Positions 790 through 52,794 of a stretch of 54,987 bases of DNA are shown here, in pieces; position 1 is the stretch's first letter; every line of letters begins with the position of its first letter. Origin of the DNA: Candidatus Magasanikiibacteriota bacterium (GTDB taxonomy: Bacteria > Patescibacteriota > Patescibacteriia > Magasanikbacterales > GWA2-37-8); NCBI GenBank assembly GCA_030650025.1, contig JAUSEN010000016.1, positions 75,428 through 130,414 on the forward strand, in the 5' to 3' direction. Made by a program: the position numbers and the translations under genes. A model generated the notes under the pieces. It did not search any database and was not told where the DNA came from. It was given only the letters and a program-made list of their open reading frames with translations.

Positions 790-2742
790 ATGGATTCAAA
801 GTTTATGCAGAATAATTTAGTGGAACTGGCGAAGTTGATTCGTTTTCACATTTTAACTTCCACCACGGCCGCGAGGAGCGGGCATCCGTCTTCGTCGCTT
901 TCGGCGACTGATTTGATGACAGTTTTGATGTTTTCCGGATTTTTTAAGGCTGATCTTGATCATCCAGCCAATCCTAATAATGACCGTTTGATTTTTTCGA
1001 AAGGCCACGCGGCGCCTCTGTTTTATTCGTTATACGCGGTGGCAGGTAAAGTGAGCGCGGAAGAAATGCTTACACTTCGCCAGTTTGGCTCGCGTTTAGA
1101 GGGGCACCCGACAATGTATTTTCCGTATACAGAAGCAGGGACGGGATCTTTAGGGCAGGGATTATCGATTGGGCTCGGTATGGCCTTGAATGCTAAGTTA
1201 GATAAATTACCATATAAAACATATGTTCTGCTTGGCGATAGCGAAATGGCCGAAGGCAGTGTGTGGGAAGCTATGCAATTGGCTGCGCATTATAAGTTGG
1301 ATAATTTAGTGGGTATTATCGATGTAAACCGGCTGGGACAGAGGGGGGAGACCATGTATGGGCACGATGTCGAAGGATATGCCAAGCGTGTTAGCGCCTT
1401 TGGCTGGGAGACGATTGTGATTGATGGGCATGAAGTTAACGAAATAGAAACGGCTTTTAGCGCTGCGCAAAAAATTACTGGGAAACCGGTGATGATTATT
1501 GCCAAGACTTTAAAAGGCAAAGGTGTTTCTTTTATTGAAAATAAAGACGGCTGGCATGGTAAGCCTTTGAATAAAGAAGAGTGTGAGAAGGCTTTATTAG
1601 AAATTGGAGAAGTAGATAAAAAGTTAGTTGGTAAAGTGGCGAGTCCTCCCCCTACCCCCTCCATTGCGATGGAGGGGGGTCGCGAACCCTCCCCTTCGCA
1701 AAGGGGAGGGCAGCCCGCCCGCAACGGCTTCGCCGTAGCGAAGTCGGGCGGGGGTGGGGTCTCGTATAAACTCGGCGATTTAGTTGCCACACGCAAAGCC
1801 TATGGCAATGCGCTAGTTAGGCTGATGGAAAGTTATAAAAATTTAGTAGTTTTAGATGCCGAGGTTTCTAACTCAACTTATAGCGAATTTGTTAAAAAAA
1901 CGCATCCGGAGAGATTTTTTGAAATGTATATTGCCGAGCAGAATATGGTGGGCGCGGCACTCGGGTTCTCGCGGCGCGGAAAAATTCCGTTTGTCTCCAC
2001 GTTCGCGGCATTTTTCGCGCGGGCGTTTGACCAAATCCGCATGAGCCAGTACGCGATGGAGATTAACCCCGACGCGCCTTCGGCGGTCGGGGCAGGCATA
2101 AAATTCGTAGGGTCACACGCAGGAGTCTCGATTGGCGAAGATGGCGCATCGCAGATGGCGCTAGAGGATTTAGCGATATTTAGAGCGATTTTGGGCAGTG
2201 TCGTGATGTACCCGAGTGACGCGGTTTCTTGCGAGAGGATTGCGGAATTGGCCGCAGACACGCCTGGTAATTTTTATATTCGTACTACGCGCAAAGAAAC
2301 ACTAGTGTTATATTCGCCAGAAGAAAAATTTGTGGTTGGCGGGAGTAAAGTCTTGCGCGAGAGTAAAAACGACGCGGTAACAGTGGTAGGAGCTGGGGTC
2401 ACGCTCCACGAAGCGCTGAAGGCCTATGAAGAATTGCAGAAAGAAAAGATAAATATTAGGGTGATTGATTTGTACAGTATAAAGCCATTAGACACAGCCA
2501 CGCTTCAGAAAGTGGCAGAGGAAACCAAAGCGATTATTACCGTTGAGGATCATTATGCCGAGGGCGGCCTAGGCGAGGCGGTGGCGTCCGCCTTTGTAGG
2601 GAACGCGTATACGCGTTCCCTACCGCGTATTGAGATGTTGGCTGTTCGCAAAATGCCGCGGAGTGGCAAACCAGCGGAATTATTGGCATACGAAGAAATT
2701 GACGCCGCGGCGATTGTAAAATTAGTTAAGAAGTTGTTGTGA
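790..2742 (+). CDS. tkt: Transketolase; short type with N- and C-terminal halves fused through a palindrome-encoded linker
   Basis: 650-aa ORF. The N-terminal half has thiamine-diphosphate-binding motifs (SGHPSSSLS, GSLGQGLS, GDSEMAEGSVWEA, IIDVNRLGQ). The C-terminal half has the pyrimidine-binding and C-terminal domains (RKAYGNAL, AEQNMVGAA, GEDGASQMALEDLA). Confidence 0.9.
   Translation: MDSKFMQNNLVELAKLIRFHILTSTTAARSGHPSSSLSATDLMTVLMFSGFFKADLDHPANPNNDRLIFSKGHAAPLFYSLYAVAGKVSAEEMLTLRQFGSRLEGHPTMYFPYTEAGTGSLGQGLSIGLGMALNAKLDKLPYKTYVLLGDSEMAEGSVWEAMQLAAHYKLDNLVGIIDVNRLGQRGETMYGHDVEGYAKRVSAFGWETIVIDGHEVNEIETAFSAAQKITGKPVMIIAKTLKGKGVSFIENKDGWHGKPLNKEECEKALLEIGEVDKKLVGKVASPPPTPSIAMEGGREPSPSQRGGQPARNGFAVAKSGGGGVSYKLGDLVATRKAYGNALVRLMESYKNLVVLDAEVSNSTYSEFVKKTHPERFFEMYIAEQNMVGAALGFSRRGKIPFVSTFAAFFARAFDQIRMSQYAMEINPDAPSAVGAGIKFVGSHAGVSIGEDGASQMALEDLAIFRAILGSVVMYPSDAVSCERIAELAADTPGNFYIRTTRKETLVLYSPEEKFVVGGSKVLRESKNDAVTVVGAGVTLHEALKAYEELQKEKINIRVIDLYSIKPLDTATLQKVAEETKAIITVEDHYAEGGLGEAVASAFVGNAYTRSLPRIEMLAVRKMPRSGKPAELLAYEEIDAAAIVKLVKKLL
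1655..1752. repeat. Three tandem GC-rich perfect hairpins inside the tkt reading frame
   Basis: Hairpin 1 is CCCCCTCCAT-TGCG-ATGGAGGGGG (1655-1678). Hairpin 2 is CCCTCCCCTT-CGCA-AAGGGGAGGG (1687-1710). Hairpin 3 is nested: CCCGCCCG...CGGGCGGG (1714-1752) with an inner CTTCGC/GCGAAG stem. GC content is far above the flanks. Confidence 0.85.
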
Positions 2743-2770: not shown

Positions 2771-2810
2771 TTAACGTAGAGACGCCCTGGCAGGGCGTCT
2801 CTACGGTTAA
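2771..2810. repeat. REP-like palindrome, family A (the RAYT-associated family), between convergent tkt and gyrA
   Basis: Sequence is TTAAC-GTAGAGACGCCC-TGGC-AGGGCGTCTCTAC-GGTTAA. The 12-nt arms are identical to the copies at 35910-35938 and 36277-36305. Confidence 0.8.
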
Positions 2811-7970: not shown

Positions 7971-7980
7971 ATAAATTATC

Positions 7981-8010
7981 AAAAAACCCGACCGTAAGTC
8001 GGGTTTTTTG
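7981..8010 (+). terminator. Intrinsic terminator after rpsA
   Basis: AAAAAACCCGAC-cgtaa-GTCGGGTTTTTT. An A-tract on the other side makes it potentially bidirectional. Confidence 0.75.
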
Positions 8011-8125
8011 ATACTCTTTTTTAGCTGGGTGGGGGCCAAGAGTGTGGAGGTAAGGGGGTAGCTGTGTTTGACAGGGCTTAACACAATGGTATATACTATA
8101 ACTATATTATAACTACTAAACTACT

Positions 8126-8747: not shown

Positions 8748-8785
8748 AAAAACAAAATCCGCCTCAATGGCGGATTTTGTTTTGC
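8748..8785. terminator. Bidirectional intrinsic terminator after the toxin gene
   Basis: AAAAACAAAATCCGCC-tcaat-GGCGGATTTTGTTTT. Confidence 0.7.
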
Positions 8786-9597: not shown

Positions 9598-11451
9598 ATG
9601 AAATATTTCGCGAAGAATTTCCTCATTGTTTTTTTGGCTTTGTTTTTAATTGCCGGAGTTTTGGGCATGATTAAATCTGGAGAGAGCAAGAAACCGGAAA
9701 CGGTTGGCGTCGCTAAACTGGTGGAAGAAATTAATGCCGGAGCGGTAAAACAAATTACGATTCAGGGCGACCTTTTGAAAGTGGTGTTAAAAGACGAGAA
9801 GGCCAAGCCGCAAGAGATTAAAAAAGAAAGCCGGGAGTCGTTTGGCGACATCATGAAGAACTACGGCGTGACTGACGAAGCGCGCAAAAATATTCAGGTG
9901 GAAGTGAAAGAAGACAGCGCCTGGAAGGTGTGGGCGATCAATATTATTCCGGCGCTTTTGCCCTTAATTTTGATAATGGTATTTTTCTTTTTCATGAGCC
10001 GCGGCGTCGCGGGAATGAACAACAAGGCCATGGGTTTTGGCACTAGCAATCCGCGCGAAGTTAAGCCGGATGAGCAGAAAGACAAGAAAACTTTCGCCGA
10101 TGTGGCCGGGGCTAAAGAGGCTAAGCAAGAGCTGGAAGAAGTGGTGGATTTTTTGAAAGATCAAAAAAAGTTTGTTGCCATGGGCGCGAAGATTCCGAAG
10201 GGCGTATTATTAATGGGGGCCCCTGGTACCGGCAAAACACTTTTAGCTAAGGCGGTTGCGGGCGAGGCGAGCGTACCCTTTTTTCACATGAGCGGCTCGG
10301 AATTTGTGGAAATGTTTGTGGGGGTGGGCGCGTCGCGCGTTCGGGATTTATTTTCTAAAGCCAAAAAAGCGGCTCCGGCGATTGTTTTTATTGATGAAAT
10401 TGACGCGGTTGGCCGCCGGCGCGGCGCGGGCTTAGGCGGCGGGCATGATGAGCGCGAGCAGACCTTGAACCAAATTTTAGTAGAAATGGATGGGTTTGAC
10501 CCTAACTCCGGCGTGATTGTGATGGCCGCCACGAACCGGCCCGATGTCTTAGACCCGGCGTTACTCCGGCCCGGGCGGTTTGATCGCCGGGTTATTATTG
10601 ACATGCCTGATATTAAAGATCGCGAAGAAAATTTGCAGATTCATGCCAAGGGCAAACCACTCGCGAGCGATGTTAATATTCGCATTATCGCGGAGCGGAC
10701 GCCCGGATTCTCGGGGGCGGATTTGGCGAACCTCATGAATGAAGCGGCGATTTTGGCAGTGCGCCGCAGCCGTAAGGATATTACCATGGACGAAATTTTG
10801 AATAGTGTGGAAAAGGTAATGCTCGGGCCGGAGCGAAAGAGCCGAGTGATCACGGATCGTGATAAAAACATGACCGCGTACCACGAAGCCGGGCACGCGA
10901 TTGTTGGCTTTATTCTCCCTAATTCCGATCCGGTACGCAAAGTGTCCATAATTAGTCGCGGCGCGGCCGGGGGCTACACTTTGAAAATGCCGAGCGAAGA
11001 TAAACACTACCACACCTTAGCGCAGTTTAAAGATGAAATTGCCATGGCGATGGGAGGATACGTGGCCGAGAAAATGATTTTTGGCGAGGCCAATGTTTCA
11101 ACCGGCCCATCGAGCGACCTCAAAAGCGCTACTAAAATCGCGCGCGACATGGTGACGCGCTATGGCATGAGCGCGCTACTTGGCCCGCGGACGTTTGGCG
11201 ACCACGAGGAACTGGTGTTTTTGGGCGGCCGTACTCAAGAAGATAGAGACTACAGCGAAAAAACAGCCGTGGAAATTGACGCGGAAATGCGCGCCCTGGT
11301 TGAGGAAGGGCAAGAGCGGGCTAAACAGGTGATTTCCAGCCACAAGGATAAGCTGGAAGCCATGGTGAAAGTTTTGTTGATAAAAGAAACTATGGAACAG
11401 GCGGATATTGAAGCAGTAATGGGCGGGCCGCAGAAAAAGAATATATCTTAA
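9598..11451 (+). CDS. ftsH: ATP-dependent zinc metalloprotease FtsH
   Basis: 617 aa. Has two TM helices, AAA+ Walker A (GAPGTGKT), Walker B (IVFIDEIDA), SRH ([19 protein letters not shown]) and the zinc site HEAGHA. Confidence 0.97.
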
Positions 11452-11489: not shown

Positions 11490-11553
11490 ATTTTTGACTA
11501 AAACATGGTATAATATAGAATCGCCATTTAGTAATCTATATCTGCCAAATCAT

Positions 11554-12507
11554 ATGCTCGAGCCAACTTATCGCCAGGCACTCTCGCACGCGTGGAGGCT
11601 AACGTGGCATCACAAAATGGTCTGGATTATCGGCCTCTTGTCTTTGTTTTTAGGGCAACTCGGTCTTAGCAATTTTATCGGCCAATTTATTTCTCAAGCT
11701 TTAACGGACGATACGTGGTGGCCAAAACAATTGGGGGTTATTTTGATTTCCACTAACGAGCAGTGGTTTTGGTTTATTTGGGCTTTAATCATAGTGGCCG
11801 CGGCGGCTTTGTTTATTTTAGTGGCCGCGGTTTGCGCCCAAGGGGCGTTATTTGTGATTGCGATTCGTTGGTACCGAACCCATTTGGTGCCCTCTTTATC
11901 CAGCGCTTGGCACGAGGGGGCGAAACATTTTTGGGGAGTCTTGGCGATAAATTTTTTGGAAAAAGTTACGTTGAGTGCGCTGTTGGCAACAGTTTTGCTC
12001 TCGCTTAGTTTATTTTCGCCAGGTACGACGGCTGGTCTTTTTGGGCAAATTCTTGTGGTGGCCGCCGGCATATTCTTGGCTTTAATTATATCGACCGTGA
12101 CAATTTACGCGCTCGGGTTTACGGTGGTTGACGAGGTCCCCGTGGTGGAGGCAGTCTGGCGGGGCTATAGTTTATTTAAGCACCATGTTTTAGTTTCGCT
12201 CGAGCTTTCGGCGCTGTTACTACTCTGCAACGCGGTGGTAATAGCGGTGGTGTCGTTCGCCTTAATTCTGGCTTTGATCCCGACTTCGTTATTTACACTC
12301 GCGGTAGGGTTCACGGGTTACACTTCTTTGCTGGTGGTTTCGGTAACATTGTATTTGTTTGTGGTGTGCTTTTTACTCGGAGTAATCGGGGCGGCTTATA
12401 ACACTTTTACCACGGCGTCTTGGGTGTATTTGTTTATGAAAATGCACCACGAGGGGCTAGTGAGCCGCCTCCTGCATCACACGGGTAAATTATTCTCCAA
12501 AAAATAA
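11554..12507 (+). CDS. Polytopic membrane protein, function unknown
   Basis: About 7 predicted TM helices. The track start at 11494 is a TTG lying inside a TGgTATAAT extended -10 box, so the in-frame ATG at 11554 is preferred. Confidence 0.55.
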   Translation: MLEPTYRQALSHAWRLTWHHKMVWIIGLLSLFLGQLGLSNFIGQFISQALTDDTWWPKQLGVILISTNEQWFWFIWALIIVAAAALFILVAAVCAQGALFVIAIRWYRTHLVPSLSSAWHEGAKHFWGVLAINFLEKVTLSALLATVLLSLSLFSPGTTAGLFGQILVVAAGIFLALIISTVTIYALGFTVVDEVPVVEAVWRGYSLFKHHVLVSLELSALLLLCNAVVIAVVSFALILALIPTSLFTLAVGFTGYTSLLVVSVTLYLFVVCFLLGVIGAAYNTFTTASWVYLFMKMHHEGLVSRLLHHTGKLFSKK

Positions 12508-12531
12508 GGTGTAGTTTTCCAAATATTTGTT

Positions 12532-14250
12532 ATGACATCGGATTTTCCTTCTATTTCTGATTTAGCCAGTAAAGCGGGCGCGCCGGTTTTGAATGCGCAA
12601 GGCACGCAAGGGGCACAGACAAAATTTACAGAGAAGATGAAGGAGATTGGCATAAAAGAAAAAGAAGCGATTGTCGCCCAAAACGCCGGCGCGCAAAATT
12701 TGCCGTATATTGATTTGGCCAAGTTCGCGATCGCGGCTGAAGCGCTTAAAGTTTTGCCCCAGGAGCTCGCGACCGAAGCCAAGGCGGTATGTTTTTTCTT
12801 TACCGCCGAAGAAATTCGTTTAGGGACCGTGGAATTTACTCCCGATATTGAAGAATTAGCTTACCAAATTGGGGAACGCCACCACGCGCACGTGGGTGTT
12901 TATTTAATTTCTCAAAATAGCTGGGAGCACGCTTTAAAACTGTACGCTAATTTGCCAATTGTTAAGGCCGTCTCTAAAGAAATTAATATTACCGATGAAG
13001 AGCTTAATCGCTACGCTTTAAACATAGGCAATCTAAGCAGCATTCATGAGGCGTTTAAGCAAGTTTCGATTACTGATATTTTGACTTTAATGATCGCCTC
13101 GGCTTTAAAAGTTAGCGCCTCGGATATTCATGTGGAAGCCGAAGAAGAGGGAATCAAGGTGCGGTACCGTATTGATGGCGTGCTTCAGGACGTGGCCGAG
13201 CTCCCCAAGGATCAGTGGAAGCGGTTTGTGTCGCGTATTAAACTTTTGGCCGCTTTAAAAATTAACATTACGGACCGGCCGCAAGATGGGCGCGTGACTT
13301 TGAAACTTTCTCAAAATAGCCTGGACGTGCGCGTGTCCACCATGCCAACTATTCATGGCGAATCCGTGGTGATGCGTATTTTGCACAGCGGCAGTAAGGG
13401 TGTGACGTTTGATGAACTCGGCATTCGCGGCGAAGCGTACGTGCGCCTCAAGCACGAGGTAGAGCGCCCGACGGGCATGATAATCACCACGGGGCCGACC
13501 GGCAGCGGTAAAACCACTTCACTGTACGCTATTTTGCGCACGCTGAATAAGCCGGATGTTAAAATCATTACGCTCGAAGATCCGATTGAAATTAAAATGG
13601 AAGGCATTAACCAAAGCCAAGTGGACGCGGCCCGCGATTACACTTTTGCCAAGGGCCTGCGCAGTATTTTGCGGCAGGATCCGGACATTTGCATGGTGGG
13701 TGAAATTCGCGATTTGGAAACCGCGGAAATCGCTATTCAAGCGGCCTTGACCGGGCACCTGATGCTTTCGACCATTCATACCAACAGCGCCTCGGGCGCG
13801 ATTCCGCGTTTTCTTTCTATGGGAGTGAAGCCGTTTTTGTTGGCTCCGTCACTCAATTCCATAATTGGGCAGAGACTAGTCCGGCGGATTTGCCCGGATT
13901 GTGTCGAAGAAACAGAACTTCCGAGCGATACGCTAGAGCGAGTTGGTAAGGTACTGCAAGAATTGCCGGACAAAGAAAAAGCGAATGTGAATTTTACAGA
14001 TTTGCATTTTTATAAAGGTAAGGGTTGTGAGGTTTGTAGCGGCCTGGGGTTTAAGGGCCGGGTGGGAGTTTATGAAATTTTTACCATGAATAAAGAAATT
14101 GAAGAGGTAATTTTGTCGGGCAAAGTTTCGGAATATACGATTCAGGAATTGGCCGTAAAACAGGGCATGATTACCATGGCGCAAGATGGTATTTTAAAGG
14201 CCCTCGACAAAATTACGACTGTCGAAGAAGTGTTTAGGGTTACGGAATAG
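12532..14250 (+). CDS. Type II secretion / type IV pilus assembly ATPase (GspE/PilB family)
   Basis: 572 aa. Has an N-terminal T2SSE_N-like region, Walker A GPTGSGKTT, Asp box, Walker B, His box (STIHTN) and the tetracysteine motif (CPDC...CEVC). Confidence 0.9.
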   Translation: MTSDFPSISDLASKAGAPVLNAQGTQGAQTKFTEKMKEIGIKEKEAIVAQNAGAQNLPYIDLAKFAIAAEALKVLPQELATEAKAVCFFFTAEEIRLGTVEFTPDIEELAYQIGERHHAHVGVYLISQNSWEHALKLYANLPIVKAVSKEINITDEELNRYALNIGNLSSIHEAFKQVSITDILTLMIASALKVSASDIHVEAEEEGIKVRYRIDGVLQDVAELPKDQWKRFVSRIKLLAALKINITDRPQDGRVTLKLSQNSLDVRVSTMPTIHGESVVMRILHSGSKGVTFDELGIRGEAYVRLKHEVERPTGMIITTGPTGSGKTTSLYAILRTLNKPDVKIITLEDPIEIKMEGINQSQVDAARDYTFAKGLRSILRQDPDICMVGEIRDLETAEIAIQAALTGHLMLSTIHTNSASGAIPRFLSMGVKPFLLAPSLNSIIGQRLVRRICPDCVEETELPSDTLERVGKVLQELPDKEKANVNFTDLHFYKGKGCEVCSGLGFKGRVGVYEIFTMNKEIEEVILSGKVSEYTIQELAVKQGMITMAQDGILKALDKITTVEEVFRVTE

Positions 14251-34854: not shown

Positions 34855-35121
34855 ATGGTTTTAGACAAACCTAAAGTTTATTCTAAAGATGAATTAAGAC
34901 AGCAGGGGTTAGTGATTGAGAGAGTTTTGCGGACTGGCACCAAAGAAGAGCTGGATAAGTTAAAGGCGATGTATCGCGATTCCGAGGTGCACCCACAGGT
35001 TAGAGCGCTGATTCGTCAAGTGGCGGCTATGGAAAACATGGCAGTACTTTTTTCTGAACAAACAGTTTCACTAGAGCCAGAAAGGAAAGGCGTGGGAATG
35101 CGGCCAAGAAAAAGGAAATAA
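34855..35121 (+). CDS. Hypothetical small protein (88 aa)
   Basis: An ORF followed by a strong hairpin. No family was recognised. Confidence 0.4.
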   Translation: MVLDKPKVYSKDELRQQGLVIERVLRTGTKEELDKLKAMYRDSEVHPQVRALIRQVAAMENMAVLFSEQTVSLEPERKGVGMRPRKRK

Positions 35122-35133
35122 ATTTTAAAATAA

Positions 35134-35158
35134 ACCCTGCACCAGAACGGTGCAGGGT
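35134..35158. terminator. Palindrome family B copy acting as a bidirectional terminator (small ORF on +, RNase P RNA on -)
   Basis: ACCCTGCACC-agaac-GGTGCAGGGT. On the minus strand it is followed by TTTATTTT. The 23-nt core is identical to that at 46473-46495. Confidence 0.7.
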
Positions 35159-35161
35159 GAA

Positions 35162-35617
35162 CATTACGATAAGCCGAATTCTGTCCCCGCCTCCTCGGCG
35201 GATGGTAATCATTTATCTGGCCTAGTTATTGCTAACTAGATCTTAGCTAGTTTTGGCCCCTCGATAAACTCGGGGCTTTAGCTTCGCTAAAGCGAGCGAA
35301 CTTTTCGAAACACCCGCCTCCGCCCGTGAGGGCTTCGGCGTGGCGCAGCGCTGCTCTTGCACTCAAGTAAGGATTTAGCCGTTTCACCTCTGGCCTTTTT
35401 GCCCTTGACCAAAGTTAAGCTATAATCGCTGATAAATCAGCTATTTGGGGCGAGCTCTCTTTGCCTTTTCAGACAAAGACGTCACTGATCGCACCTCGTC
35501 CCGACATTAAGCCGGGAGGTGGGTGTTACCCACTACCTGTGTCCCGCCTCATCGGCGGGGAGTGTTCGGACTTTCCTCTCCGACGCGCTGACGCGGTCGG
35601 AGCGATTACCTGTAATG
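35162..35617 (-). ncRNA. rnpB: RNase P RNA (bacterial type A-like, enlarged)
   Basis: The minus strand contains GAGAGGAAAGTCCGAACAC (CR-I: GAGGAAAGUCCG) near the 5' end and GGACAGAATTCGGCTTATCG (CR-V: ACAGAAnnCGGCUUA) near the 3' end. It also has GGTAACACCCAC and GAGGTGAAACGG internal motifs. The P1 candidate is CATTAC/GTAATG. Ends are approximate. Confidence 0.85.
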
Positions 35618-35674
35618 AACGTTGGGCATATTAACATAAATGGCGGGTTTTGTCAATGGGCAATCGTAAGATTA

Positions 35675-36250
35675 TTAGATTTTATACATTTCATCCTCGA
35701 TCCATTTTTCGGGATTGCTTTTGATGTATTGTCTTATATTGATTAATGATTTTTGGTTTCGTATAACATGATCATGAAAACGGGATTGCCAGGCGAATTC
35801 GGATTCGATTGGGCGAATTCTTTTGGTACAAACCATTTTAAATTGATTGATAATCGAACCCAATGAATTTGATTTCCATTCTGCTCGTTTACCGCCAGTA
35901 CGTGTGTCCGTAGAGACGCCCCGCCGGGGCGTCTCTACAATGTTGGCCAACACATTCGCGCCACGGGGCGCGCCTACTATGCCAATTATTAAATGAACAT
36001 GATTGGGCATAATTACCCAGGTATCAATATCAATATTTGGTCGAATGATGGCTGTTTTTAATAATTCTTCTTCGGCAATTTTACCGACTGAAGATAATTC
36101 CATTACGCCTTTGTTTACATCGCCAAAATATTTTTCTCGATTTTTTGTGCAAATCGTTACAAAATATAAACCGGTCGAGGAATAATCATATCCTGGCAGT
36201 CGGTTTGATGGTATGCGGTATTTATGTAAATATTTATTTTCAACAGACAT
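35675..36250 (-). CDS. IS200-like Y1 (HUH) transposase, REP-associated tyrosine transposase (RAYT)-type
   Basis: 191 aa. HUH motif in VIMPNHVHLII and catalytic-Tyr region NIRQYIKSNPEKW. Single gene with no partner TnpB. Flanked by, and containing, family A palindromes. Confidence 0.85.
   Translation of the reverse strand: MSVENKYLHKYRIPSNRLPGYDYSSTGLYFVTICTKNREKYFGDVNKGVMELSSVGKIAEEELLKTAIIRPNIDIDTWVIMPNHVHLIIGIVGAPRGANVLANIVETPRRGVSTDTRTGGKRAEWKSNSLGSIINQFKMVCTKRIRPIESEFAWQSRFHDHVIRNQKSLINIRQYIKSNPEKWIEDEMYKI
35904..35940. repeat. REP-like palindrome family A copy inside the RAYT reading frame
   Basis: GTGTCC-GTAGAGACGCCCCGCCGGGGCGTCTCTAC-AA. Read on the minus strand it encodes IVETPRRGVSTDT between the HUH motif and the SLGSIINQFK helix. 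Confidence 0.85.
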
Positions 36251-36270
36251 AATTATTATACCTGTTTTTT

Positions 36271-36321
36271 GTGTCCGTAGAGACGCCCCGGCGGGGCGTC
36301 TCTACAACGGGGCGTCTCTAC
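36271..36321. repeat. REP-like palindrome family A copy plus an extra half-site, immediately upstream of the RAYT start
   Basis: GTGTCC-GTAGAGACGCCCCGGCGGGGCGTCTCTAC-AA followed by CGGGGCGTCTCTAC. The first 37 nt differ from 35904-35940 by one dinucleotide in the loop. Confidence 0.85.
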
Positions 36322-36363
36322 ACCTCTATCACCACCCCTCGACTGCGCTCGGGGCAAGCCGGC

Positions 36364-38166
36364 TTAGACTTCGATAACAACGGGTAGGATCATAGGTCTC
36401 TTCTCGGTTTTGGTGAAGAGGAACTGGCCGACGTAGTCGCGGATTTTATTTCTGATATAATTGGTGTCGGCCCAGGATTTGGGGTCAGAATCGACGACCA
36501 GTTTTTTGACGCGGTGGCGGAGATCCTCGATTAATTCTTTATGTTCTTTGAGATAGACAAAGCCACGCGAGATAATATCGGGGTTTTGAATTAAGAGGCC
36601 AGTTTTGGTGTCGACGGTGGCGATAATTACTACCATGCCATCTTCGGCTAAGGCCTGGCGATCGCGGAGGACTACATTGGTTTCGTCGGAAACACCAAGC
36701 CCGTCTACAAAGACATAATCGGACGGGAGTTTAGTGGTGGTAAGGACACCGGTGCCTTTAGAAAATTCCATTACTTGGCCGTTGTCAGCAATAAAAATAT
36801 TTTCTTTGGGCATACCCATAGCAGCGGCTATTTTACCATTCAGGCGCAACATAAAGTGGTTGCCATGTTGAGGGACAAAATAGCGTGGTTTGAGTAAGCT
36901 CAACATTAATTTAACATCATCGGCTTTGGCGTGGCCACCGGCGTGTACATCCATCATTTCGTGGTGAATTACTTCAGCCCCTTTTCTAAACAAGGTATCT
37001 TTAAGGCGCTGGACAGTGCGTTCGTTACCAGGGATGACAGAGGACGAGAAAACAACCGTATCGCCAGGCACTAATTTGATTTCGCGATGTTCACCGGTCG
37101 CGATCCGCATTAAGGTGGCATTTTTTTCACCCTGAGCGCCAGTACAAATTACCACTACCTTATTCATTGGGTATTTGTCTATCTGGCGCATGTCGATTAG
37201 TATTTTGGAGTTGAATTTCATGTACCCTAGCTCTTTGGCGATTTCCACGTTGCTTTTCATGCTGTAGCCGCCGAGCGCCACTACCTTACCAAGTTTTTCC
37301 GAAATTTCAATAAGCTGTTTAATACGCGATAGCAATGAAGAAAAAGCGCCAATAATAATGCGGCCCTTGGCTTTCGTAATAAGGTCTTCCAGGTTAACTC
37401 CGATTTCGGATTCGGAAGTTTGGTGCCCTGGCATCATGGCGTTGGTGGAGTCGCTCATGAGGGCTAACACGCCTCGGTCACCAATTTTAGCGATGCGTTG
37501 CAAGTCGGCCGGTGGTTCGCCTACGGGCTGATAATCAAATTTCCAATCCCCAGTGTGTACCACAGTGCCTTCGGGTGTGTTGATAACAACCGCCATTGAA
37601 TCAGGAATGTTGTGATTGACGTGGAAAAATTCGATATCAAAGGCTCCGAGGCGAAGATGGTCGTCAATTTTAACATTATGAATCCGGAATTGATTAACGT
37701 CGGTAAAATCGTCTTGGCGTTTTTTAATAATGGCGTTAGTAATGGGGAGCGCGTAAATTGGTGGATAACCAAGGTTGGGTACTAAGTGGGGAATACCACC
37801 AATGTGGTCGTAGTGACCGTGGGTAATAATAATACCGCGAATGCGCTTCTCTTTTCCTTTCAAATAATTCATGTTCGGAATGATGTAATCAATACCCGGC
37901 ATGTCCTCTTCGGGGAATTGGAGGCCAAGATCAATTAAAATAATGTCTTCGCCATACTCAATTAGAGTGCAATTGCGGCCCACTTCTTCGAGGCCCCCCA
38001 GCACGGCGACTTTGAGTTTTTTAGTGTAAACGCCAGGGCTACTGGCTAGAGCGGGGGCGCTGGCGAGGGGCATCCCGGGTGGGCGGTTAAGCGGAGCGGG
38101 ACGACGTTGCGGGCTTGACCCATAGCGGCGGCGCGACGGGTGTGAGGCTGGTTTGCTGCTGATCAT
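36364..38166 (-). CDS. rnj: Ribonuclease J (MBL / beta-CASP family) with an Arg/Pro-rich N-terminal extension
   Basis: HGHYDHIGG motif, beta-CASP region and the C-terminal domain typical of RNase J. The first ~50 aa are low-complexity and basic. Confidence 0.92.
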   Translation of the reverse strand: MISSKPASHPSRRRYGSSPQRRPAPLNRPPGMPLASAPALASSPGVYTKKLKVAVLGGLEEVGRNCTLIEYGEDIILIDLGLQFPEEDMPGIDYIIPNMNYLKGKEKRIRGIIITHGHYDHIGGIPHLVPNLGYPPIYALPITNAIIKKRQDDFTDVNQFRIHNVKIDDHLRLGAFDIEFFHVNHNIPDSMAVVINTPEGTVVHTGDWKFDYQPVGEPPADLQRIAKIGDRGVLALMSDSTNAMMPGHQTSESEIGVNLEDLITKAKGRIIIGAFSSLLSRIKQLIEISEKLGKVVALGGYSMKSNVEIAKELGYMKFNSKILIDMRQIDKYPMNKVVVICTGAQGEKNATLMRIATGEHREIKLVPGDTVVFSSSVIPGNERTVQRLKDTLFRKGAEVIHHEMMDVHAGGHAKADDVKLMLSLLKPRYFVPQHGNHFMLRLNGKIAAAMGMPKENIFIADNGQVMEFSKGTGVLTTTKLPSDYVFVDGLGVSDETNVVLRDRQALAEDGMVVIIATVDTKTGLLIQNPDIISRGFVYLKEHKELIEDLRHRVKKLVVDSDPKSWADTNYIRNKIRDYVGQFLFTKTEKRPMILPVVIEV

Positions 38167-46471: not shown

Positions 46472-46500
46472 CCCCTGCACCAGAACGGTGCAGGGTTTTT
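46472..46500. terminator. Palindrome family B copy with U-tract (terminator for the + small ORF and the - rplS)
   Basis: AAAAAAACCCCTGCACC-agaac-GGTGCAGGGTTTTTT. Confidence 0.78.
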
Positions 46501-51693: not shown

Positions 51694-52794
51694 CTAGTTT
51701 AAGTTTTTGATAAATTCATTCAAATTCTTCGGCAGGGAAGATTCGAATTCTTGTTTTTTTCCAGCCAAATCCGTAAACCCAAGTTTAGTGCTGTGCAAAA
51801 ATAGCCGGCCACATTTCTCGTCCAAATTCTTCTTGCGTTTTTTTTGAAAGTAAAGCGAGTCGCCAACGAGAGGGTGGTTATAGGCTAAAAAGTGCACGCG
51901 AATTTGGTGCATGCGGCCGGTGTGCAAGAAAACACGCACGAGTGTGCAATTGGCAAAAACTTTTTCGGTAATATATTCGGTATGCGCTTCTTTGGCACCT
52001 TGAGGAATGTAGGGAGTGACGGGCAGGGCAGCCATGCGGTCGTTATTTTCGCCCCGCGCGATCGGGAAGCGCAGGTGCTCCCAATCGCGTTCGACTTTGC
52101 CATGCACTAGAGCCAAGTATTCTTTAGTAATCTCTCGATTTTTAAATTGATTTTTTAAATTTTCGAAAGATTTTTGAGTGAGAGCCACGACCATAAGGCC
52201 AGAGGCTTCTCTATCTAATCTGTGTACTATTCCCGGTCTAATGTTAGTACTTGAGGATAACTTGCCCCGCACCGGGCCGCGTAGCGGCTCTGGTGCGGGG
52301 TCGCCCACGGTTTTTATTTTGGGAAATTTTTTGATAAGCCAGGATGCTAGGGTGTTGGTTTCGTTTGCTTGGGTGGGATGTACTAATAAACCAGATGGTT
52401 TATTTAAAATTACAAATTCAGAATTTTTAAAAATAATTTCTGGTTCTAACTTCTTTATTGTTGGCTTGTTTTTTAAGAGAGAATTAACGCCCCCTCTCCT
52501 TCGCAAAGGAGAGGGTTGGGGTGAGGTTTCGCTCGCAATGACGACAGTGTCACCCGCGCGCAAGGGCTGGCCGTGTTTGGTGGCGAGCATATTGTTTATC
52601 AAAACTAGCCTCTGGTCGATTAGTTTTTGGATTTGGGAACGAGAAATTCCGGCCAAATCTGTTAAAGCAATATCGAGGCGGGTTTTAACAGCGCCTTCGG
52701 GAATAATAAATTTTTGTCCTGATTTTTTGACAGAAGTCCTTGGAGATTTTTTGGCGGTGGCTTTGGATTTTATCATAATTATTTTAGCGGTCAT
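51694..52794 (-). CDS. rluD: 23S rRNA pseudouridine synthase, RluD/RluA family, with two palindrome-encoded insertions
   Basis: S4 domain (RLDIALTDL...SRSQIQKLI), catalytic motif GIVHRLDREASGLMVVA and HQIRVH. Confidence 0.9.
   Translation of the reverse strand: MTAKIIMIKSKATAKKSPRTSVKKSGQKFIIPEGAVKTRLDIALTDLAGISRSQIQKLIDQRLVLINNMLATKHGQPLRAGDTVVIASETSPQPSPLRRRGGVNSLLKNKPTIKKLEPEIIFKNSEFVILNKPSGLLVHPTQANETNTLASWLIKKFPKIKTVGDPAPEPLRGPVRGKLSSSTNIRPGIVHRLDREASGLMVVALTQKSFENLKNQFKNREITKEYLALVHGKVERDWEHLRFPIARGENNDRMAALPVTPYIPQGAKEAHTEYITEKVFANCTLVRVFLHTGRMHQIRVHFLAYNHPLVGDSLYFQKKRKKNLDEKCGRLFLHSTKLGFTDLAGKKQEFESSLPKNLNEFIKNLN

Follow-up and report, generated by a model that had tools for sequence, protein, structure and literature searches.

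A RAYT gene and its palindromes

A 54,987-nucleotide stretch of the Candidatus Magasanikiibacteriota assembly GCA_030650025.1 (contig JAUSEN010000016.1, positions 75,428 to 130,414), referred to here as the window, contains a gene for a RAYT, or TnpA-REP, enzyme. The gene is accompanied by repetitive extragenic palindromic (REP) sequences, and one copy of the palindrome lies in frame inside the gene itself. The features of the locus are as follows.

35675..36250, minus strand: RAYT / TnpA-REP gene, TnpA-Y1 subclass 2.4-like, an open reading frame (ORF) of 191 amino acids
36271..36307 (palindrome 36277-36305), no strand: upstream REP, a 37-mer, 27 nt 5' of the RAYT ATG and 59 nt beyond the stop codon of RNase J
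35904..35940 (palindrome 35910-35938), no strand: internal in-frame REP, a 37-mer encoding V105-T114 (VETPRRGVST), part of the loop that links the HUH strand to the following helix
36309..36321, minus strand: extra single arm (half-site) GTAGAGACGCCCC, an exact arm adjoining the upstream REP
2776..2804, no strand: dispersed REP copy, perfectly palindromic with one stem change that is compensated (CCCTG/CAGGG), between transketolase and gyrA and 33 kb from the gene
35957..35977, minus strand: degenerate second GTAG-footed hairpin, GTAG-G-CGCGCC-CCGT-GGCGCG, encoding VGAPRGA
35941-35952: 12-nt palindrome TGTTGGCCAACA, between the main internal REP and the degenerate hairpin

The cognate REP is a double-foot GTAG...CTAC palindrome, GTAGAGACGCCCCGNCGGGGCGTCTCTAC. 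Its core, at 36277-36305 and at 35910-35938, is a perfect 29-nt palindrome, GTAGAGACGCCCCG-N-CGGGGCGTCTCTAC. The upstream and internal 37-mers are direct repeats that differ only in the central base (G versus C), and their likeness ends at their edges. An arrangement in which the two copies are mutually inverted was considered and rejected, because they share the asymmetric flanks GTGTCC...AA in direct orientation. Matches to the REP arm number nine in the window, where 0.6 are expected from shuffled sequences; none of 100 shuffles reached nine.

The mini-palindrome GCGCCACGGGGCGC at 35958-35971 is preceded by GTAG on the coding strand and is thus itself a short GTAG-footed hairpin. Judged by its sequence, this VGAPRGA hairpin looks like the remnant of a GTAGGGGCGC-type REP, which is found in the same loop of loci L025 (VGAHGRAPLR) and L070 (VGAPGRAPLP).

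The gene is flanked by RNase J upstream and RNase P RNA downstream, with no TnpB among its neighbours. Only one homologue of the enzyme occurs in the window when both strands are counted. Rfam scans, of the whole window at gathering thresholds and of 35100-36400 by E-value, returned tRNAs and RNase P RNA only and assigned the hairpin to no RNA family. Among the matches listed in a literature search with the raw sequence GTAGAGACG, there were only unrelated primers.

The original prediction had described a RAYT-type Y1 gene without TnpB, flanked by its palindrome and carrying another copy in frame, with a neighbouring half-site, a nearby mini-palindrome and a third full copy far away, and had placed all of this in the Candidate Phyla Radiation (CPR). 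Each of these observations holds, and the mini-palindrome proves to have a GTAG foot in addition. The lineage is borne out by GyrA, whose best named relatives come from Candidatus Magasanikbacteria / Patescibacteria at 74-81% identity.

Identity of the enzyme

The RAYT ORF contains an HUH motif, MPNHVHLII (H84-V-H86), and a catalytic region, RQYIKSNPEKW. The latter supplies the catalytic tyrosine Y175 within a Y-x3-N-P signature (Y175-IKS-N179-P180), and a WQ pair is formed by W154 and Q155. The Pfam model Y1_Tnp matches the N-terminal half only, with 26.9 bits against a gathering threshold of 23. More than 4000 homologues can be detected.

Sequence similarity to the E. coli TnpA-REP of structure 4er8 is weak, at 21% identity in the structural alignment. 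The functionally important positions correspond. When the two proteins are aligned with phmmer, W94, Q95, E100, H101, R104, Y115 and N119 of 4er8 fall on W154, Q155, D160, H161, R164, Y175 and N179. The guide-contacting residues of 4er8 are therefore matched (W154, Q155, D160 with a change from E to D, H161 and R164), and they are nearly invariant among 45 aligned homologues. A model of the protein was built with AlphaFold (AF2) on these 45 homologues. It has a mean predicted local distance difference test (pLDDT) score of 82.2, and the top Foldseek match is 4er8 chain A (E 9.1e-7, template modelling scores 0.53/0.60), followed by the TnpA proteins of ISDra2 and IS608. The reading as a RAYT/REP system, already made in the original prediction, is thus supported by the HUH and Y-x3-N-P motifs, the GTAG-contact residues, the GTAG-footed hairpins at the gene and the fold match to 4er8.

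A promoter scan from the upstream REP to the ATG found no sigma-70-like site. A TATAAT hexamer lies within 36255-36262, 4 nt ahead of the ATG, but neither a -35 box nor a Shine-Dalgarno sequence can be recognised. Transcription may yield a leaderless message, or it may continue from rnj through the upstream REP into the gene.

A hairpin shared across the family

Whether the VETPRRGVST segment is a peculiarity of this gene or a palindrome-encoded feature of the whole family can be decided by alignment, as the original prediction proposed. The answer is that it is family-wide. Among the 120 closest homologues, the best of more than 4000, VETPRRGVS is present in 90, and most of the others have obvious variants. 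In the alignment of 45 homologues, E106, T107, P108, R110, G111, V112, S113 and T114 are invariant or nearly so.

At the DNA level, 80 loci were fetched from named genomes and compared together with the window, giving 81 RAYT genes from Chloroflexota, Bacteroidota, Cyanobacteria, several CPR phyla, Proteobacteria, Ignavibacteriota, Acidobacteriota and others. In 46 of the 81 genes, the variable loop just past the HUH motif contains a perfect stem of 10 bp or more, and many further genes have shorter or degenerate versions. Elsewhere in the same genes, perfect stems are usually absent or shorter. The commonest foot is GTAG(A/G)G(A/G)C...CTAC. Inner stems vary between genes yet remain complementary, and the distance of the hairpin from the HUH motif ranges from 19 to 183 nt.

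The same DNA can be read in more than one way. The GTAG foot is in frame 0 in 14 genes and in frame 1 in 13, and it is never in the frame that would read its TAG as a stop. For example, one and the same arm, GTAGAGACGTTGCA, gives VETLHATSL in some genes and RRDVACNVST in others.

Codon usage provides further evidence. Six homologues were picked purely on protein similarity, from contigs with a guanine-plus-cytosine (GC) content of 38-58%. In five of them (L202-L206) the arm codons are those of the window and the central base alone differs, while the sixth (L201) has a variant 3' arm. At positions where the residues are identical, codons agree in 48 of 57 cases (84%) within the hairpin versus 250 of 520 (48%) elsewhere (L001 and L202-L206; Fisher p = 1e-7). 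Moreover, residues 96-121 of the AF2 model, the palindrome-encoded segment, have pLDDT below 50 although they are highly conserved in the input alignment.

The internal copy is therefore constrained as DNA and not as peptide. It occupies a surface loop that is disordered in the model, and it is tolerated in either stop-free frame.

REP copies outside the gene

Extra copies of the locus-specific arm are found outside the gene at 23 of the 46 loci, mostly less than 200 nt away and sometimes in arrays. Genes that share the same 12-nt arm are slightly more similar in the conserved parts of the protein (identity 0.524 vs 0.474, permutation p = 0.0075). In-frame single-arm repeats occur in the homologues P0005, P0015 and P0090.

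Two arrays illustrate the arrangements. In L001 (about 9680-9830), nine single arms with a spacing of 16 nt lie upstream of the RAYT gene. In L020 (about 11510-13020), six full hairpins spaced by about 180 nt extend from +1509 to +2402 nt beyond the gene end.

When metagenome contigs were scanned for the 29-mer in its exact form, at least 123 occurrences were found in at least 120 stretches. Among the 123 listed, 14 are inside RAYT ORFs, five lie no more than 400 nt from one, one is farther away on a RAYT contig, and 103 are on contigs without a RAYT. Contig GC ranges from 0.32 to 0.75. The surroundings of 120 listed 29-mers contain no conserved flank or target site; the only tendencies are a depletion of A at -1 and of T at +1 after the palindrome.

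Several of these listed copies reside in frame within unrelated genes, which were identified by eye from their translations: UvrB (L090), a Ser/Thr kinase (L178) and a molybdopterin oxidoreductase (L136). PanC (pantoate-beta-alanine ligase, also by eye) carries the 29-mer, read as VETPRRGVST, at the same position in contigs L088 and L110, which points to an in-frame REP that was inherited or re-acquired in a housekeeping gene. In L110, the PanC gene also contains a degenerate second copy (ARRGVS) closer to its start.

A close RAYT homologue, P0076, is located inside a type III-B CRISPR-Cas locus in L206 (Chloroflexota contig JACIWX010000006.1, 10001-10528). The cmr genes are on one side of it and cas6-cas1-cas2-cas4 on the other.

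Place among known systems

The closest described group is TnpA-Y1 subclass 2.4, which its authors identify with group 4 in the RAYT scheme of Bertels et al. (Quentin, Siguier, Chandler & Fichant 2018, BMC Genomics 19:475, PMC6006769). Subclass 2.4 proteins have NH[IFV]H, WQ and YIxNNP motifs and a median length of 194 residues, and their REPs are of the canonical long and 'double foot' types, GT[AG]G...C[TC]AC. A REP inside the enzyme's own gene is given there as a hallmark of the subclass, and the variable region is modelled as a peripheral extension predicted to be unstructured. The distribution is described as patchy, with Cyanobacteria, Bacteroidetes and 'various phyla' named (PMC6006769). 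Group 4 is rare in Proteobacteria but spread over 17 bacterial classes, and its flanking 16-mers are modestly repeated, about 14 per replicon (Bertels et al. 2017, PMC5581495).

The window RAYT agrees with the subclass description in its NHVH, WQ and Y-x3-N-P motifs, its length (191 residues vs a median of 194), its double-foot REP and, as far as the window shows, its low copy number. Its internal REP at 35910-35938 (residues 105-114) falls between H86 and Y175. It differs in its Y motif, YIKSNP rather than YIxNNP, with S where the consensus has N, and in its host, a Magasanikbacteria-like member of the Patescibacteria. Since the subclass features tested were all found save this one residue, the Patescibacteria RAYT belongs to an already described kind. 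CPR members of the family are already present in public genomes (L005, L007, L019, L028, L033 and L040). In the sections of the publication that were consulted, there was no mention of the use of two frames, of frozen synonymous sites, of a remnant left by an older hairpin or of an exact 29-mer shared between phyla.

The E. coli TnpA-REP (group 2, 4er8) and the group 3 REPtrons of Stenotrophomonas and Marinomonas resemble the window system in the HUH/Y1 fold, in the GTAG-contact residues and in having a GTAG-footed hairpin beside a gene present once, for the window RAYT once in the 55 kb. The REPs themselves differ. The E. coli REP is single-footed, bulged and strictly extragenic, and it flanks both sides of the gene, whereas the window REP is a perfect, double-footed palindrome that is also intragenic.

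Short palindromes in frame within functional genes have precedents in the Rickettsia palindromic elements (RPEs) and in intragenic GTAG/CGTC REPs, which are found within genes, notably DNA repair genes (Di Nocera et al. 2013, PMC3733652). For palindromes of the window type, the in-frame hosts are UvrB, PanC, transketolase and the RAYT gene. RPE-1, the best-known RPE family, is longer than the window-type REP, and RPEs are not known to have a dedicated transposase. In contrast to RPEs, the window-type element bears the RAYT guide tetranucleotide, and the enzyme gene is its most consistently occupied host gene.

Finally, the TnpA enzymes of IS200/IS605 elements have in common with the RAYT the Y1 HUH fold and, by analogy, a hairpin-recognising chemistry on single strands. 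They have Y-x3-Q, are multi-copy, are often accompanied by TnpB and have hairpins at both element ends; none of these features was found for the window RAYT.

How the internal copy may be maintained

Very probably, this Magasanikbacteria-like (Patescibacteria) genome has at the locus a REPtron that belongs to TnpA-Y1 subclass 2.4 / RAYT group 4. By analogy with its characterised relatives, its enzyme would be a single-copy HUH/Y1 nuclease and ligase of single-stranded DNA. Its internal REP is a family-wide feature, constrained as DNA and tolerated in a loop that is disordered in the model.

The TnpA-REP enzymes of groups 2 and 3 bind the folded, single-stranded REP with GTAG as a guide, cut at CT or CA dinucleotides on either the 5' or the 3' side of the hairpin, and transfer the strand (PMC8266576). 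On the model of E. coli, Stenotrophomonas and Marinomonas, the window RAYT would likewise bind its GTAG-footed hairpin on single-stranded DNA, cleave beside it and rejoin the strands, producing new copies. The palindrome is symmetric, so that both strands should offer the same substrate, and its 3' CTAC foot would place a CT opposite the guide.

The persistent occupancy of one loop could follow from three properties. The enzyme may act preferentially near its site of synthesis, an existing REP may draw further REP events, and the loop next to the HUH motif may be the sole permissive site in the gene. In combination, these would keep the loop occupied while its contents turn over. Turnover fits the degenerate VGAPRGA hairpin beside a perfect one, the single-arm repeats and the variable offset from the HUH motif (19-183 nt). 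Local action in cis followed by turnover is the favoured and most likely explanation of loop occupancy.

Several observations weigh against this picture of the locus and of its internal copy. The best model for the protein is NCBIfam REP_Tyr_transpos (NF047646), yet the score of 63.7 bits is under the cut-off of 80; we guess that this model was presumably built mainly on proteobacterial groups. There is no REP 3' of the gene, where the rnpB promoter occupies the place. The 55 kb hold only three full REP copies and one half-site. We found no published activity for any group 4 / subclass 2.4 enzyme, and cleavage by the window RAYT is extrapolated from groups 2 and 3 (PMC8266576). Lastly, the occupancy of the loop in at least 57% of genes despite the small repeat families of group 4 (PMC5581495) could equally indicate selection for the internal copy.

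Such selection underlies the alternative that survives best, which is possible but unlikely: the internal hairpin may be a selected cis element. It could be a master copy that unites enzyme and substrate and allows re-seeding after horizontal transfer. It could also be an autoregulatory site: either the enzyme would bind there to the gene or its mRNA, or the hairpin itself would hold back the transcription or translation of a nuclease that may be toxic. This would suit the very high occupancy of one short loop across phyla, the stems of 13-17 bp that stay perfect at 35-60% protein identity with synonymous sites frozen, and the lack of any further copy within +/-10 kb at 23 of 46 loci. The presence of the listed 29-mers in contigs of 32-75% GC is consistent with joint horizontal spread, and the taxonomic distribution reported for the subclass is patchy (PMC6006769). 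However, a fixed site sits uneasily with the variable HUH offset, with the 35 of 81 genes that have no perfect stem of at least 10 bp at the loop, and with the remnants and single-arm repeats, which point to turnover. In addition, the element also lies within the reading frames of UvrB, PanC, a kinase and transketolase, which makes intragenic residence a general habit.

A stronger form of the same idea, which we consider improbable, is an 'inside-out transposon'. Here the RAYT and its in-frame REP would be selected as an indivisible unit of about 600 bp that resists deletion, can found a REP family anew after horizontal transfer and maybe regulates itself. It would explain the identical 29-mers at 32-75% GC, the frozen synonymous sites and a loop occupancy of at least 57% with small families.

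The remaining explanations fare much worse. The family-wide hairpin, its reading in two frames, the frozen codons and the low pLDDT together rule out both a private insertion and a functional peptide motif. The original prediction had offered as one possibility that the REP had inserted itself into this one gene and was tolerated in the loop. In favour of such a private, recent event, the internal and upstream 37-mers are one base apart, which looks recent, and in-frame REP insertion is seen in other genes of the lineage. It is very unlikely all the same, because 90 of the 120 closest homologues have the same hairpin in the same loop, members of other phyla have related ones, and L202-L206, chosen without regard to DNA, share the arm codons. 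All that is left of self-insertion is repeated re-insertion or homogenisation where a copy was already present, as part of the explanation by cis action and turnover.

It is scarcely more credible that VETPRRGVST is a functional protein motif with the palindrome as a by-product, even with eight of its residues (near-)invariant in close homologues: in more distant members the frame differs while the DNA is the same (RRDAMHCVST, GRDVACNVST, VETQNFASLR), synonymous positions are conserved far beyond the gene background, the segment has pLDDT below 50 despite its conservation, and the same peptide or DNA turns up in unrelated proteins. An ordinary mobile IS200/IS605 element whose terminal hairpins are similar by chance would account for the Y1_Tnp domain and the hairpin beside the gene but is highly doubtful, given Y-x3-N-P instead of Y-x3-Q, a score of 13.7 bits with the NCBIfam IS200 model NF033573 (cut-off 55), no TnpB, no second copy in the window, no hairpin at the downstream end and a hairpin that is dispersed without the gene.

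Other palindromes in the window

The window contains further palindromes, of which the following were distinguished.

2596..2623, no strand: second double-foot GTAG...CTAC family, GTAGGGAACGCGTATACGCGTTCCCTAC, in frame in transketolase (VGNAYTRSLP)
1655, 1687 and 52492: CCCTCC...GGAGGG family, no GTAG foot
35134-35158 and 46473-46495: hairpin (A)CCCTGCACC-AGAAC-GGTGCAGGG(T), a separate small repeat family, no GTAG foot
7977-8013 and 8749-8783: bidirectional T-run terminators

The original prediction had regarded the enzyme, or relatives of it, as the obvious candidate mobiliser of the other palindrome families in the window. This is not supported in general, as only the two GTAG...CTAC families bear the RAYT signature. 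The proposal that every other palindrome in the window is a RAYT substrate was rejected, since several are T-run terminators or are without a GTAG foot.

The transketolase gene (790-2742, plus strand) has at least four or five palindromic in-frame segments, notably at 1655-1767, 2059-2100 and 2596-2623. They comprise two hairpins of the CCCTCC type, a nested CCCGCCCG hairpin within the linker between domains, an imperfect hairpin, CCCCGAC...GTCGGGG, that is read as EINPDAPSAVG, and the GTAGGGAACGCG double-foot palindrome. Relatives and human transketolase are 3-4 residues shorter at 2596-2623. Three syntenic relatives (L207-L209), whose GyrA is 81-84% identical, have none of the transketolase palindromes and lack the REP at 2776-2804; the window transketolase is 5-41 residues longer than theirs. 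These palindromes were thus gained recently in the lineage of the window. The inserts resemble the situation of the Rickettsia RPEs, here in a CPR genome.

A third copy of the CCCTCC-type family lies at 52492-52515 in a 373-residue stop-to-stop ORF on the minus strand. It has the form CCCTC(T/C)CC-TTCGCAAA-GG(A/G)GAGGG and is read as SPQPSPLRRRGG, which suggests that this family without a GTAG foot also resides in frame in genes.

RNase P RNA (bacterial class A) is found immediately 3' of the RAYT gene at 35154-35621 on the minus strand. The match covers the full model (1-367, E 4e-23) with 76.5 bits, under the Rfam gathering score of 100, and at 468 nt it is about 100 nt longer than the model. 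A promoter-like TTGACA-17-TAATAT lies beside it at 35656-35628, and the hairpin copy at 35134-35158 overlaps the 3' end of the match.

Implications

The locus adds an example from the Patescibacteria to a described RAYT subclass; the in-frame copy itself is already a published trait of that subclass (PMC6006769). In this one small genome, the loop of the RAYT, an intergenic site and a housekeeping gene all bear GTAG double-foot palindromes.

There is also a practical consequence for annotation. Where VETPRRGVST or GRDAPAGRLY appears in unrelated proteins, it represents a translated REP and not a domain.

The finding raises the question of why subclass 2.4 genes so consistently hold their own substrate in frame. 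The use of two frames, the frozen codons, the hairpin remnants and the identity of the 29-mer across phyla make this question about the internal copy directly testable.

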